This document shows positions 56,601 to 63,729 of a DNA stretch of 64,000 nt, piece after piece. The DNA lies in the sequence record PP239276.1. One strand, 5' to 3'. The DNA is from Escherichia phage BME3. Positions within the stretch are counted from its first letter, which is position 1. Every line of letters starts with the position of its first letter. The notes beneath the pieces were generated by a model. The model saw only the letters and a list, made by a program, of their open reading frames with translations. It did not search any database and was not told where the DNA came from. The translations under genes were made by a program, and so were the position numbers.

Positions 56601-56629
56601 CTTTAACATATTTTAAATAGTTTTGTCAA
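56601..56629 (-). promoter_or_regulatory. minus-strand promoter (TTGACAA - N16 - TTAAAG)
   Basis: reverse complement reads TTGACAAAACTATTTAAAATATGTTAAAG, same pattern as 61583-61611 and 62894-62922. Confidence 0.4.
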
Positions 56630-56632
56630 GAT

Positions 56633-58717
56633 TTATCTTCCTCTGATACTATATGGAGAAGATAAAGAGTTTCTTGATCTTCCACCCATCTTACCGTACC
56701 CTGTTAATGCATTTGTTGCAGAAGGTATTGCTACTGCTTTAAACATCTGTTCTTTTGACAAAGTATTAAAGCAAGATGCAGCAGCATCTGGAATATCATC
56801 TTTTAATGTTGCCGTAGATCTTTCTCCATTAAATGACTCCATCTCTTTATAGAAATGATCAAGAGTTTCTTTGTTAGGGAAAGATTCTTCTACAATATAA
56901 ACAAAACCATTTTGACAAGCACTACTAAATGGCATAAAGCGTTGTAATTTTTTCTTGTTACCAGGCATAGCATCTGGTTTAACAACAAACCCTTCAGCAA
57001 TTAGTTTTTTAGCTGATTCTGTATATTCAATCAAACCAGCACCAGAAGGATCTTTTGGCAATACAACTGTAACTTCATCTCCATCAATCTTACATTGGTT
57101 TAGAATTAAATTATCTCGATCACCTGGTAGTCTTCTGAATCTACCAAAAATTTTACTACCTTCATCGTGAGCATCATAATCATAATCACCAAAAATGTAA
57201 TAATTTCCATCAGAGTCTTTAGCCATTTTAACAGATGTTGTGTAGTCAGGATAACGATAAGATTCTGTTGGAACAGATACTGCTTTATCCCACGCTCGCA
57301 TATATTTAAGATTGTTTGGTAAATCTTTAAACTTGATAACGTGTAACCATTCTCTGTTAAAGAAACTCTCTTCTTGCGCACGAGCAAACCAACAACCATC
57401 TAAAAGCTGTGCTCTCTTAACGGCGGTTTGAGCCTTCAAAGAAGCTAAGTATTTAGGGTTAAGTCTTATTAGTTCAGGGTTATCAAAGATAGTACCACCA
57501 ATGAACACAAATGTTTGTGGTTCAATAACCACTGTTTCACCTGTGTTTGGGTTTTGCATAAAACAGTTTTCAGGATACTTTTCTTTCAACTCTTCTGCTG
57601 TTTCAGCAAATACTGGTTCATCTTGCACAATAAGAAAGTATAGCTGTTTGCCACACATATCTTCTCGTGGATAACCCGCTTCATCTAAATACGGAAGTAC
57701 CCATTTCAACACCCAACTATCTGCATCAGGGTTACAAGTACACAGCATAAAAGATGTTTCTGATTCAGAACGCATACGCCCTAACAGATACAGCATTTCA
57801 TATTGTGTAAAATGTGTAAGTTCGTCAAACCCTACCATCGAATACTGTGTACCTTGATGGTTAGTTTCAGCAGTTACGTTATCATTTTCAAGATGGTCAA
57901 ATTTAAGTGTGCCACCTTTTGTGGCTCTGAACTCCATCTCCATAGCCTGTTCTCTTACGTGAGGCTTTAATGGTAGATAAAGTTTTTTAGCTTCAGTAAA
58001 CAAACCACCAGATTTACGTAAAGCTGTTGTATTTTTACGGAAAAGAATACCACCAAACAGTGGATCTTTATATGCGTATTTAAGTGCTTTTAGAAGTAGC
58101 AGACGGCTTTTGCCGCTATTCCCAGTAACGAAGATGTGATCGCCACGTCTAAACACGACATAACTGCTTGGAGTTTCAAAGCAATATTTCTTATCATCAC
58201 TTGTCATTACCTCATGAATTTTTAGATATGTGCTAGGTTTACCTTGAATGTTAAACGGAACACGTTTACCAAAAGGATTTTCAATATATCCTCGTAATGG
58301 GTGTCCTGCTTGCTGTAGTGCAATAAGATCCCCAACAAGAATTTCAAAATGTTTTTTGGATTTTTTCTTCTTGTAGAAAACAAAGCGATGTTCCATACTT
58401 AATTCTTGGAAGACACCTACTCCGTTTGTGATACAATACAGATTATCTTTAGCATCATATTCTACAAAAGATGGTGTAACTAATTCAAGACGTTTATTTC
58501 TTGGATTGTATTGATAAATATCCTCACCATCATATTCACTTATTTGTTTCCAACCGTCTCTTGTTAAGTATTCTGTTTCTGCTGAAACACAACCTGCCGC
58601 ACCACCATAAATCATTACTTCAGGCATAAGATCCATAGCTAGTGTTTGTTTGCCAGGTTGGGCTTTAACTTCAATATCTACATTTTCAAAAGATTGTTTG
58701 ACAGGTTTCCTTGCCAC
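56633..58717 (-). CDS. terminase large subunit
   Basis: 694 aa, Walker A-like VTGNSGKSR near N-terminus, acidic nuclease-like C-terminal half. Confidence 0.75.
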   Translation of the reverse strand: MARKPVKQSFENVDIEVKAQPGKQTLAMDLMPEVMIYGGAAGCVSAETEYLTRDGWKQISEYDGEDIYQYNPRNKRLELVTPSFVEYDAKDNLYCITNGVGVFQELSMEHRFVFYKKKKSKKHFEILVGDLIALQQAGHPLRGYIENPFGKRVPFNIQGKPSTYLKIHEVMTSDDKKYCFETPSSYVVFRRGDHIFVTGNSGKSRLLLLKALKYAYKDPLFGGILFRKNTTALRKSGGLFTEAKKLYLPLKPHVREQAMEMEFRATKGGTLKFDHLENDNVTAETNHQGTQYSMVGFDELTHFTQYEMLYLLGRMRSESETSFMLCTCNPDADSWVLKWVLPYLDEAGYPREDMCGKQLYFLIVQDEPVFAETAEELKEKYPENCFMQNPNTGETVVIEPQTFVFIGGTIFDNPELIRLNPKYLASLKAQTAVKRAQLLDGCWFARAQEESFFNREWLHVIKFKDLPNNLKYMRAWDKAVSVPTESYRYPDYTTSVKMAKDSDGNYYIFGDYDYDAHDEGSKIFGRFRRLPGDRDNLILNQCKIDGDEVTVVLPKDPSGAGLIEYTESAKKLIAEGFVVKPDAMPGNKKKLQRFMPFSSACQNGFVYIVEESFPNKETLDHFYKEMESFNGERSTATLKDDIPDAAASCFNTLSKEQMFKAVAIPSATNALTGYGKMGGRSRNSLSSPYSIRGR

Positions 58718-58725
58718 ATCTCCTC

Positions 58726-59055
58726 CTAATTAGAAATTATTCCTTCACTTTGTAATGTTTTAATATAGTTTTGTAAACTGATAAGTTTTATCCTATCTTT
58801 TTCCCACAAAGCGTTGTTTAAAGTTTGATTATCAACTACCTCTGATCTTGTAACTCCTTTCTTTATTTGATTAGGGGTATATAAAACAGGGGTAGATGGT
58901 TTTTCCATACTGACAGAATCAGGTGCTTTTATTTGTTGTGTTGCTACAGCTTTACACTGCTCAATCAGTAGAGGCTGGGAAGCTGTTGTTGATGATGCGC
59001 AACCCGTCATCATTAGGGCTAAAACAAGACATAGCGCCAGAAGATGTTTTCGCAT
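58726..59055 (-). CDS. o-spanin (Rz1-like outer-membrane lipoprotein)
   Basis: MRKHLLALCLVLALMMTGC lipobox; start lies inside the upstream i-spanin gene in another frame. Confidence 0.55.
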   Translation of the reverse strand: MRKHLLALCLVLALMMTGCASSTTASQPLLIEQCKAVATQQIKAPDSVSMEKPSTPVLYTPNQIKKGVTRSEVVDNQTLNNALWEKDRIKLISLQNYIKTLQSEGIISN

Positions 59056-59392
59056 AATCTATTCTCTCTTGTGTTATGTTATTACTCTTCTTATCCAGTT
59101 GTGTAAGAAGATCATTTCTTTCTTTCGTTAATGAATGAATTTTTTCATTCAATTTAGATCTTTCTGAATCTGCTTTTGCTTGTAAGATATCGAATTGCTG
59201 TTTTGCTTTAATTTGGTTTTGTTGTAATATTTGTTCTTGTTTAGCAACACCTGCATTGTAGCCTTGTGCATACACGTCATCGTGTAATTTGTTTAAACCA
59301 ACATACAAACCACCAAACAGTGCTATAATAAGAACAAAATACCTAACCCATTTATTCTTCAGTAGGTTTATTAACATAGTCAGTATCATCAT
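58961..59392 (-). CDS. i-spanin (Rz-like)
   Basis: N-terminal transmembrane segment then coiled-coil (QEQILQQNQIKAKQQFDILQAKAD). Confidence 0.55.
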   Translation of the reverse strand: MMILTMLINLLKNKWVRYFVLIIALFGGLYVGLNKLHDDVYAQGYNAGVAKQEQILQQNQIKAKQQFDILQAKADSERSKLNEKIHSLTKERNDLLTQLDKKSNNITQERIDYAKTSSGAMSCFSPNDDGLRIINNSFPASTD

Positions 59393-59428
59393 CTTTAAAT
59401 TTTACTTTAGGCAGATTTGGTGAATTAT

Positions 59429-59602
59429 TAACTATCTTCTTCACTACCATCGGTTGTGCATTCTCCAAAATCTCCTTCCATTGTTCTTCTGTAATCATAG
59501 TCTAACTCTTCCTCCAGATCCCATTTACGCGAATAACTGTTCTTCTTGTCTCTGTGATAAGAAGCCCTATTAAAATCGTGTTTAGCTACATAGTTTCTCA
59601 TT
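59429..59602 (-). CDS. hypothetical small protein
   Basis: 57 aa ORF read by hand from reverse complement, AGGAGG RBS; not in ORF track (under 60 aa). Confidence 0.3.
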
Positions 59603-59661
59603 TTATAGTCCTCCTGTATTAATCATATCATAAAAACATATATAAAAGCAATAGGTATAAA

Positions 59662-59698
59662 ATAAAAAACCCCCTAACCTTTCGGAAAGGGGTGTTAA
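59662..59698 (-). terminator. rho-independent terminator
   Basis: CCCCT..CCTTT-CGG-AAAGG..GGGG hairpin with T6 on minus strand. Confidence 0.5.
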
Positions 59699-59739
59699 TT
59701 AACAAGGAGAGGGGGAACAAAGTTCCCAAGAGAGGAGAA

Positions 59740-63022: not shown

Positions 63023-63092
63023 TTTTCACAGTAACTATAACAAAAAACTAAGTAAATGTCAAGATATTTTTTACTAAATTGCTATTTAAATT

Positions 63093-63165
63093 GAAGCCTA
63101 GTTATGGAATCGAACCATATTTCGTATTTAGTTAGACAAAGCGATCTAACATATTTTTCAGGCTT
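63093..63165 (-). tRNA. tRNA-like, atypical (no encoded CCA; internal hairpin has 8-nt loop)
   Basis: perfect T-arm TATGG-AATCGAA-CCATA; 7 bp acceptor possible only with 2-nt offset. Confidence 0.35.
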
Positions 63166-63202
63166 TGATGGCCTCGGAATTACCAAATACCCTACCAGGC
63201 GT

Positions 63203-63288
63203 TGGTGCAAGTGGAGGGATTCGAACCCTCAATCATTTAAGCGTTGCGTTTTAAGCACAATGTGTATCACCAATTCCACCACACTTGC
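63203..63288 (-). tRNA. tRNA-Leu (UAA), type II
   Basis: CCA, perfect acceptor, T-arm GAGGG-ATTCGAA-CCCTC, 13 nt variable arm, anticodon loop CUUAAAA. Confidence 0.7.
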
Positions 63289-63319
63289 ATATAGGAGATG
63301 CATAGCACCTCCTTTTAAA

Positions 63320-63395
63320 TGGTGGTTCCCCAGGGTTACAATCCCTGCCCTCGACACTTATGAGGTGTGCGCTCTCGTCAGTGAGCTATGGAACC
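63320..63395 (-). tRNA. tRNA-Met/Ile2 (CAU)
   Basis: CCA, 6 bp acceptor, D stem GCTC/GAGC, anticodon loop CUCAUAA, T-stem CAGGG/CCCTG with non-canonical loop. Confidence 0.55.
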
Positions 63396-63402
63396 TTGAA
63401 TA

Positions 63403-63669
63403 TTAAGCATACTGGGTCATTTCACCAGCTTCGCGTTTCTCCAGAAGAACTGTAATCAAAGCAATAGCTGCTTCTTCTTCGTGAGGAAGCCCCATTTCAT
63501 CCAGAAGAGCAAGGAAGTCAATTACCAAACTTTCTGTTTTAAGGCTCACGCTACCATTTTCGTTTTCAGTAAGAACTGATTCAGGTTCAAAAATAAAGAT
63601 TGCTCCACCTTTATTATCAATCAATACGTGCTTCTCAATCAATTCTTTACCATAAGTACGTTCTGTCAT
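63403..63669 (-). CDS. hypothetical acidic protein
   Basis: 88 aa ORF, promoter-like motif upstream. Confidence 0.5.
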   Translation of the reverse strand: MTERTYGKELIEKHVLIDNKGGAIFIFEPESVLTENENGSVSLKTESLVIDFLALLDEMGLPHEEEAAIALITVLLEKREAGEMTQYA

Positions 63670-63699
63670 AGTTTTCTCCTTTTTGTTTAACTTGTGCTT

Positions 63700-63729
63700 A
63701 TCTTAGCAAATAACTAGCTATGTTGTCAA
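63700..63729 (-). promoter_or_regulatory. minus-strand promoter (TTGACAA - 18 nt - TAAGAT)
   Basis: reverse complement reads TTGACAACATAGCTAGTTATTTGCTAAGAT. Confidence 0.45.

Follow-up and report, generated by a model that had tools for sequence, protein, structure and literature searches.

Gene layout and promoter-like sites

We analysed 64,000 nucleotides (nt) of Escherichia phage BME3 (PP239276.1), a stretch that we call the window, for a recurring promoter-like element with a TTGACA -35 hexamer. By megablast, the window is that of a phi92-like coliphage (Justusliebigvirus, Stephanstirmvirinae), a myovirus. Escherichia phage W22 is 98.9% identical to it, PHB05 and ECGD1 are each 98.7% identical and phi92 is 96% identical. 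Plus-strand genes run from position 1 to ~21700 and encode DNA polymerase, primase/helicase, glycosyltransferases, endolysin and Ter-like proteins. Minus-strand genes run from 64000 down to 21736 and comprise small open reading frames (ORFs), 16-17 transfer RNA (tRNA) genes and the genes for spanin, terminase, portal, head, tail and tail-fibre proteins. The base composition is 62% A+T, and 5.6% of the DNA is intergenic. The phi92 GenBank record (FR775895.2) annotates ribosome-binding sites, with no annotation of promoters.

Eight strong sites occur in the window, each named here by the first base of its -35. All eight have a perfect TTGACA, and their -10 hexamers (TAAGAT, TATAGT, TAGATT, TAGAGT, TAAAGT, TAGACT, TAAAAT and TATTAT) follow at 17 or 18 nt. 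A TG lies one base before the -10 (positions -15/-14) in seven of them, and at 54935 it abuts the -10. Over the 25 nt before the -35, seven of the eight have 72-92% A+T with AAAAA runs, a composition compatible with UP elements. Upstream of 44440, a terminator occupies the place of the A/T-rich stretch.

The first site on the minus strand, 63700-63729, consists of TTGACA (63724-63729), an 18-nt spacer with TG at 63707-63708, and TAAGAT (63700-63705). It lies upstream of an ORF of 88 amino acids (63403-63669), and its -35 shares bases with the stop codon of a small membrane-protein ORF upstream. This promoter is identical in phi92 and PHB05.

Three further minus-strand sites precede tRNA genes. 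One, at 63034-63062 (TTGACA-N17(TGT)-TATAGT), was missed by an earlier reading of the sequence alone. It is located 11 nt upstream of a tRNA gene (62944-63022, minus strand) that is called by Rfam (RF00005; 38.6 bits, compared to a gathering score of 29) and not by ARAGORN. This tRNA is the predicted product of the 63062 promoter. Visual inspection suggests a UCU-like anticodon loop and a long variable arm. The second site, at 62893-62922 (TTGACA-N18(TGT)-TAGATT), is 15 nt upstream of tRNA-Ser(tga) (62788-62877). The third, at 61582-61611 (TTGACA-N18(TGT)-TAGAGT), is 11 nt upstream of tRNA-Gly(tcc) (61496-61570), and its -35 is in the loop of an 8-base-pair (bp) hairpin (61598-61617). Given that these promoters lie 11-15 nt before the mature 5' ends of the tRNAs, the predicted leaders would be only ~5-9 nt long. 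We also noticed tRNA-like remnants ending in GGTTCGATTCC...CCA/TCA at 63100-63202 and 60594-60739, which neither ARAGORN nor Rfam calls.

The structural genes have three minus-strand sites. The first, at 56600-56629 (TTGACA-N18(TGT)-TAAAGT), occupies part of the 97 nt that separate the end of the terminase gene (stop at 56633) from the portal gene (start at 56535). The predicted portal transcript has a hairpin in its 5' untranslated region (56567-56588, minus strand), whose GC-rich stem has 8 bp (-16.2 kcal/mol including flanks, z -3.7). The second, at 54907-54935 (TTGACA-N17-TAGACT), follows a long A/T tract and is upstream of the genes for prohead protease, scaffold, decoration and major capsid proteins. 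A 16-bp hairpin with a U-tract (54887-54924, minus strand; -16.9 kcal/mol, z -5.9) overlaps its spacer and -10. The third, at 44411-44440 (TTGACA-N18(TGA)-TAAAAT), is upstream of Dit-like and other baseplate genes. The terminator of the tape-measure gene (44450-44473) is directly upstream of it, and a hairpin (44382-44408) follows.

The eighth strong site, at 19118-19147 (TTGACA-N18(TGT)-TATTAT), is on the plus strand. It is intergenic and upstream of an ORF (19158-19556) in the replication block.

Register, enrichment and placement of the motif

The sequence-only reading had described the element as TTGACAA-N16-18-TTARAK at four minus-strand sites and had considered its -10 divergent. Three of these sites match the pattern exactly (56601-56629, 61583-61611 and 62894-62922). 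The fourth, 63700-63729, reads TTGACAA-N17-TAAGAT and does not fit, because two registers had been mixed: the real -10 was used there and a shifted hexamer in the other three. These shifted hexamers (TTAAAG, TTAGAG and TTAGAT) start one base upstream of the real -10s (TAAAGT, TAGAGT and TAGATT). Two further sites listed as related versions, 44411-44440 and 54907-54935, are real. In the proper register, the -10s of all six sites are TAAAGT, TAGAGT, TAGATT, TAAGAT, TAAAAT and TAGACT, i.e., the second base is always A and the sixth always T, and TGn precedes the -10 in all but one of the sites. The apparent divergence therefore comes largely from reading the hexamer one base off; in the right register, the -10s are acceptable for sigma-70 and are backed by a TGn (TRTGn) extended -10. 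The genes downstream of the sites had been named correctly, including the portal ORF (54967-56535).

The motif is also enriched. The literal TTGACAA-N16-18-TTARAK pattern has three matches, all on the minus strand and all with N=16, compared to 0.11 expected from dinucleotide shuffles, and none of 100 shuffles reaches three. A refined pattern, TTGACA-N14-15-TGN-TANNNT, matches at six minus-strand positions (63729, 63062, 62922, 61611, 56629 and 44440) and one plus-strand position (19118). These seven matches compare to 0.27 expected, and none of 100 shuffles reaches seven. All seven sites, as well as 54935, are entirely intergenic and oriented with the genes. When the TGn is dropped (TTGACA-N16-18-TANNNT), there are 16 sites in the window compared to 4.7 expected. 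Half of them are intergenic and co-oriented (binomial P=4e-9). The other eight lie within coding sequence, five in antisense orientation, and all of them lack TGn. In a scan with the sigma-70 consensus, the sites score 10-11 of 12 matches, with the TG present.

Conservation in related phages

We compared the window to diverged relatives from IMG/VR, which carry L-numbers below, and to the whole genome of PHB05, which was assembled from four pieces and then scanned for the promoter pattern. The promoter upstream of the portal gene is present between the terminase and portal genes in six sequence-distinct IMG/VR relatives, whose portal proteins are 73-89% identical. Four lineages have TTGACA-N18-(TGT)-TAAAGT with differing spacer sequences, one relative has TTGACA-N17-TACAAT and another has TTGACT-N17-(TGT)-TATATT. 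Thus, the sequence and even the length of the spacer vary, while the -35 and TAnnnT persist. The hairpin at 56567-56588 has a counterpart of different sequence at the same position in relatives.

The 54935 promoter, downstream of the portal gene, is nearly invariant, and ~100 nt of non-coding DNA around it are 80% identical in seven relatives. Across these seven relatives, 98% of cells in the 54887-54924 hairpin are paired. There is one compensatory A-U/U-A exchange, as well as several G-U/A-U exchanges that are workable on the sense strand only.

At the position of 44440, relative L062 has TTGACA-N18(TGC)-TATCAT, and its Dit-like protein is 79% identical in amino acid sequence. In L062 (IMG/VR 3300030441_000047, 380-440), a perfect inverted repeat of 12 bp, TTGTACATCAGT ... 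ACTGATGTACAA, encloses the site. In PHB05, GGGAGTAT-N10-ATACTCCC spans the -10 of the promoter at 48736. Promoters enclosed in dyads seem to recur in the phi92-like group. Relatives whose Dit-like proteins are 60-78% identical (L063-L078) have only a hairpin and no promoter; they look like a different phage group and were set aside.

In the tRNA clusters of the Phapecoctavirus phages ZCKP1 and WPEC4, we found three TTGACA-N18-TAnnnT sites, one of which is 11 nt before tRNA-Gly. The same arrangement at tRNA-Gly occurs in L088 and L094, and an orthologous site of the 62922 promoter is present in ZCKP1/WPEC4 and L094. For 62922 and 63062, the two sites that we compared between the window and phi92/PHB05, the differences within the element are in the spacer and not in the hexamers. 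The 109-amino-acid ORF at 61626-61955 could not be used for orthologous context, since its IMG/VR relatives are mostly unrelated phages.

The sites as probable host sigma-70 promoters

The sites are very probably promoters for the unmodified sigma-70 holoenzyme of E. coli, of the '-35 / TGn / -10' type. Their architecture, enrichment, position, orientation and evolutionary conservation are directly visible in the DNA. The motif is not random and almost certainly marks functional promoters; the idea that it is promoter-like is borne out by sites that are enriched, intergenic, co-oriented and kept at orthologous positions in diverged relatives. From these properties we infer initiation by sigma-70, and the start sites, strengths and timing discussed here are likewise predictions. 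E. coli sigma-70 is the relevant polymerase because the window is that of a phi92-like coliphage.

A perfect TTGACA, a 17- or 18-nt spacer ending in TGn (often TRTGn), a TAnnnT and usually an A/T-rich, UP-like upstream stretch would together provide the contacts known from established promoter biology. Sigma region 4.2 would bind the -35, region 3.0 the TG and region 2.4 the -10, a mode of recognition reviewed in PMC2613000. The C-terminal domains of the alpha subunits would contact the upstream A-tracts.

We propose that transcription is restarted at these sites, inside a long minus-strand unit that would cover nicotinamide adenine dinucleotide (NAD) salvage, the tRNA cluster, lysis, terminase, portal, head and tail. 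Three restart points would precede tRNA genes, and one each would precede the portal gene, the protease/scaffold/capsid block and the baseplate block. No further restart points are apparent in the ~22 kb that follow 44440. Coupled with hairpins, such sites could attenuate transcripts from upstream and start fresh ones, so that the expression of each block would be set independently, and the hairpins may also protect mRNA 5' ends. The hairpin at 54887-54924 illustrates this proposal. As an intrinsic terminator, it would stop read-through from the portal gene. Transcripts from the embedded 54935 promoter would carry only the 3' arm of the hairpin and would therefore continue. With a promoter embedded in a terminator, the capsid block would thus be expressed independently of the terminase and portal genes.

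The annotation of PHB05 lists neither an RNA polymerase nor a sigma factor, nor any sigma-appropriation factor of the AsiA/MotA or gp55/gp33 kind. In 56 early ORFs of PHB05, which may include novel factors, Pfam detected no family of AsiA, MotA, sigma or anti-sigma proteins. We rejected a phage-encoded factor that redirects the polymerase, given that these ORFs have no such Pfam family.

The sequence-only reading had also suggested a promoter class belonging to the phage and serving late and tRNA transcription. The first part of this suggestion does not hold, since the architecture is the host sigma-70 consensus. The second part is too narrow, because the same type of promoter is found in the replication block (19118-19147, plus strand) and in ~18 copies in the early region of PHB05. 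In fact, PHB05 has TTGACA-type promoters in every module, and the ~18 copies are in a region of small early ORFs at 138-146 kb. The PHB05 sites at 47554 and 48736 precede NAD-salvage genes. A phage-specific late class does not fit with a host -35 in every site, nor with sites before tRNAs, NAD-salvage genes and the replication block.

Several points weigh against sigma-70 promoters as the explanation. In most sites, the -10 matches TATAAT at only four of six positions, such that strength would have to come from the TGn and the -35. Nor is a spacing of 18 nt optimal for sigma-70. The assignment of UP elements is based on A/T richness only. The dyads or hairpins in which several sites are embedded could bind a regulator. 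A perfect -35 before structural genes leaves the switch from early to late expression unexplained. Finally, a literature search, which was partly too broad, found no start-site mapping or expression data for phi92-, rV5- or Phapecoctavirus-like phages.

As predicted promoters, the sites supply coordinates for a transcription-unit map of the tRNA-lysis-head-tail block, which is of value for annotation and engineering. They also suggest that a large lytic coliphage puts consensus host promoters before its structural genes.

Early promoters and alternative explanations

The early region of PHB05 (138.6-145.9 kb, corresponding to L082 24600-31900) and those of L095 (9000-16800) and L096 (9300-20100) have ~11-18 TTGACA-N16/17-TAnnnT promoters. 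In most of these early promoters, the -10 is followed at ~3 nt by a conserved box, CAC(A/G)TAGGGCGGGAAATGGTTTCCCGCC. This box is itself a GC-rich hairpin at the 5' terminus, and a ribosome-binding site comes after it. The hairpin box is retained in a relative with only 65% identity in its early protein. Our guesses are that it stabilizes the mRNA 5' end or is the site of a regulator.

The two groups of promoters differ in spacing. In PHB05, five of the nine sites in the NAD/tRNA/lysis/structural block have an 18-nt spacer, compared to none of the 18 early sites (Fisher P=0.0016), whose spacers are 16 or 17 nt long. TGn is present in seven of nine sites versus seven of 18 early ones (P=0.10). 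The 18-nt split is repeated in a diverged genome, with none of 11 early sites in L096 and two of six (L094), four of five (L088) and two of four (L090) late sites.

This split supports an alternative that is close to the sequence-only reading, namely a distinct, temporally regulated (middle/late) class. In this alternative, an 18-nt element, TTGACAA-N17-TGn-TAnnnT, would be preferred after a change induced by the phage, either a factor acting on sigma-70/RNA polymerase or a shift in template supercoiling. The downstream CACRTAGGGCGG hairpin box, which is conserved on early promoters and absent from tRNA and structural-block sites, also fits this alternative. So does the resistance of TGn/-10 promoters to T4 AsiA (PMC2613000), as well as the preference of highly negatively supercoiled DNA for long spacers (PMC9303308). 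However, the 18-nt/TGn build also occurs at 19118 in the replication block, 17-nt sites (63062 and 54935) lie within the tRNA/structural block, and TGn is shared with ~7/18 early promoters. In E. coli, TGn promoters are reported to prefer spacers of at least 18 nt (PMC2613000). Since 18-nt spacing is thus a generic correlate of TGn in the host, the split is not exotic. Moreover, no AsiA, MotA or sigma homolog was detected in the 56 early ORFs, and it is unlikely that tRNA and NAD-salvage genes are strictly late. We consider this class quite improbable.

A related idea keeps the host-type promoters and divides them into two conserved sub-classes, such that spacer length and TGn would set the temporal program without a new sigma factor. 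Early promoters would have 16-17-nt spacers and the CACRTAGGGCGG...CCCGCC 5' hairpin box at ~+3. The tRNA/lysis/structural promoters would have TTGACAA and an 18-nt spacer ending in TRTGn. The second sub-class could resist a phage factor that blocks -35 recognition, or could be sensitive to altered template supercoiling, and terminator-embedded promoters would insulate gene blocks from one another. We regard this division as rather unlikely. If it is true that the spacer/TGn split controls timing, it would be a simple switch for which no sigma factor is needed.

Another possibility is that the conserved blocks are mainly RNA- or protein-binding elements (terminators, processing or stability hairpins, or operator dyads) and that their likeness to promoters is secondary or coincidental. 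Several sites are indeed overlapped or flanked by hairpins that fold far better than shuffled sequences. The near-complete retention of pairing at 54887-54924 and the 80% identity around 54935, which is beyond the need of a promoter alone, point in the same direction. However, the sites share TTGACA, a fixed spacing and TAnnnT rather than any common hairpin, and the placement of hairpins relative to the hexamers varies from site to site. The tRNA-proximal sites 62922 and 63062 have no hairpin at all, and the -35 and -10 persist where the sequence of the hairpin is wholly changed. This explanation therefore has very little probability.

Chance matches in A/T-rich intergenic DNA might be considered, given the composition of the window and a loose sigma-70 scan that barely exceeds shuffles (64 versus 55 expected), but they are refuted by strict patterns at least 25-fold over shuffles, by the wholly intergenic, co-oriented placement of the refined-pattern matches, by the binomial P value given above, and by conservation at the same positions in diverged relatives, such that we give them practically no weight.

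Additional sites and neighboring features

Beyond the eight strong sites, we found weaker ones that are predicted to be of the sigma-70 type. On the minus strand, a site at 60051-60079 (TTTACA-N17(TGT)-TATCCT) follows a terminator (60102-60126). Another, at 59622-59651 (TTGCTT-N18(TGA)-TATGAT), also follows a terminator and is upstream of an ORF at 59428-59601. A third, at 50324-50352 (TTGCAA-N17-TATACT), has no properly spaced TGn and is upstream of an ORF at 49893-50309. On the plus strand, a sigma-70-like site in the replication/Ter block (1413-1440; TTGACT-N16-TATAGT) is followed by a 5' hairpin (1453-1471), and similar weaker plus-strand sites are present at 2585-2613, 7398-7425, 8759-8787, 10030-10059 and 15734-15762. 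The tail-fibre region has GC-rich hairpins between genes on the minus strand (24556-24594, 26557-26596 and 33590-33638), each directly followed by a ribosome-binding site and without a promoter.

Two genes near the portal gene merit a comment. The PHB05 ortholog (gp113) of the minus-strand gene at 54391-54882 is labeled 'DNA methyltransferase' in RefSeq. By contrast, Pfam assigns 54391-54882 to Peptidase_S78_2, an XkdF-type prohead protease (E=2.6e-11), and this label suits a location between the portal and scaffold genes. The ORF for the terminase large subunit (56633-58717) has a 158-amino-acid insert (amino acids 43-200; 58118-58591, minus strand) that interrupts the Walker A motif. Its junctions read GGAAG | CVSAETEY...HIFVTGN | SGKS, i.e., the first residue is Cys, the last is Asn and Ser follows. 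Pfam Terminase_6N aligns only from amino acid 201 onward. Judging by these junction motifs only, the insert would resemble a mini-intein. Pfam and PDB sequence searches gave no match to a Hint domain or intein for it.

Comparison with known systems

The extended -10 promoters of E. coli resemble the sites described here in having TTGACA, TG at -15/-14 that often follows T plus a purine, TAnnnT and 17-18-nt spacers. The classic example of an extended -10 promoter is galP1, while lacP is the classic promoter with an 18-bp spacer. Promoters of the galP1 type have a poor -35, whereas the strong sites, which are predicted from the sequence, have a perfect one.

Among phages, the early promoters of T4 are strong promoters of the host-polymerase type, with UP, -35, TGn and -10 elements (PMC2613000), which resemble the -35, TGn, -10 and putative UP-like A-tracts of the sites here. 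In T4, however, they serve early genes only, and transcription is then switched by AsiA/MotA and by gp55/gp33/gp45. The promoter type in the window also precedes portal, capsid and baseplate genes. T4-type late promoters (TATAAATA, with no -35) share with the window sites a position before structural genes. We rejected them as a model, given that the sites carry a consensus -35 and lack the TATAAATA box.

A putative early promoter of Certrevirus phages (CB7 and CR3), AAAA(N3-4)TGTTGAC(N17-19)TATAAT, is sigma-70-like, has a UP-like A-tract and is conserved in related large enterobacterial myoviruses (PMC7344957). Unlike the sites in the window, it is reported to be concentrated in early/middle regions and not before structural genes or tRNAs (PMC7344957).

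A further parallel is phage rV5 (Kropinski et al. 2013), for which 33 sigma-70-like promoters were predicted, 11 of them with an extended -10 (PMC3606486, Table S4). These promoters are spread over early and late regions, according to the authors. PtRNA, P074 and P075 are in the tRNA region, P036 and P051 are in the late block, and no homologs of gp45/gp33/gp55 are reported (PMC3606486). Like the window, rV5 has a tRNA cluster upstream of a minus-strand structural block, TTGACA(A) as the -35 and TGn-TAAAAT/TAAGAT as the -10. The two differ in that the spacers in the late/tRNA block are 17 nt in rV5 and mostly 18 nt in the window, and in that rV5 belongs to Vequintavirinae and the window to Stephanstirmvirinae. 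We rejected the rV5 'late' boxes (TGGTAAAATA) as an explanation after reading the intergenic regions of the structural block. The 'late' MEME motif of rV5, TggTAaAAtA, is not a separate class, because it is itself a TGn-TAAAAT extended -10. The promoters in the window are ordinary, textbook promoters of the host type, and equivalent sites were predicted in the sister phage rV5 in 2013.

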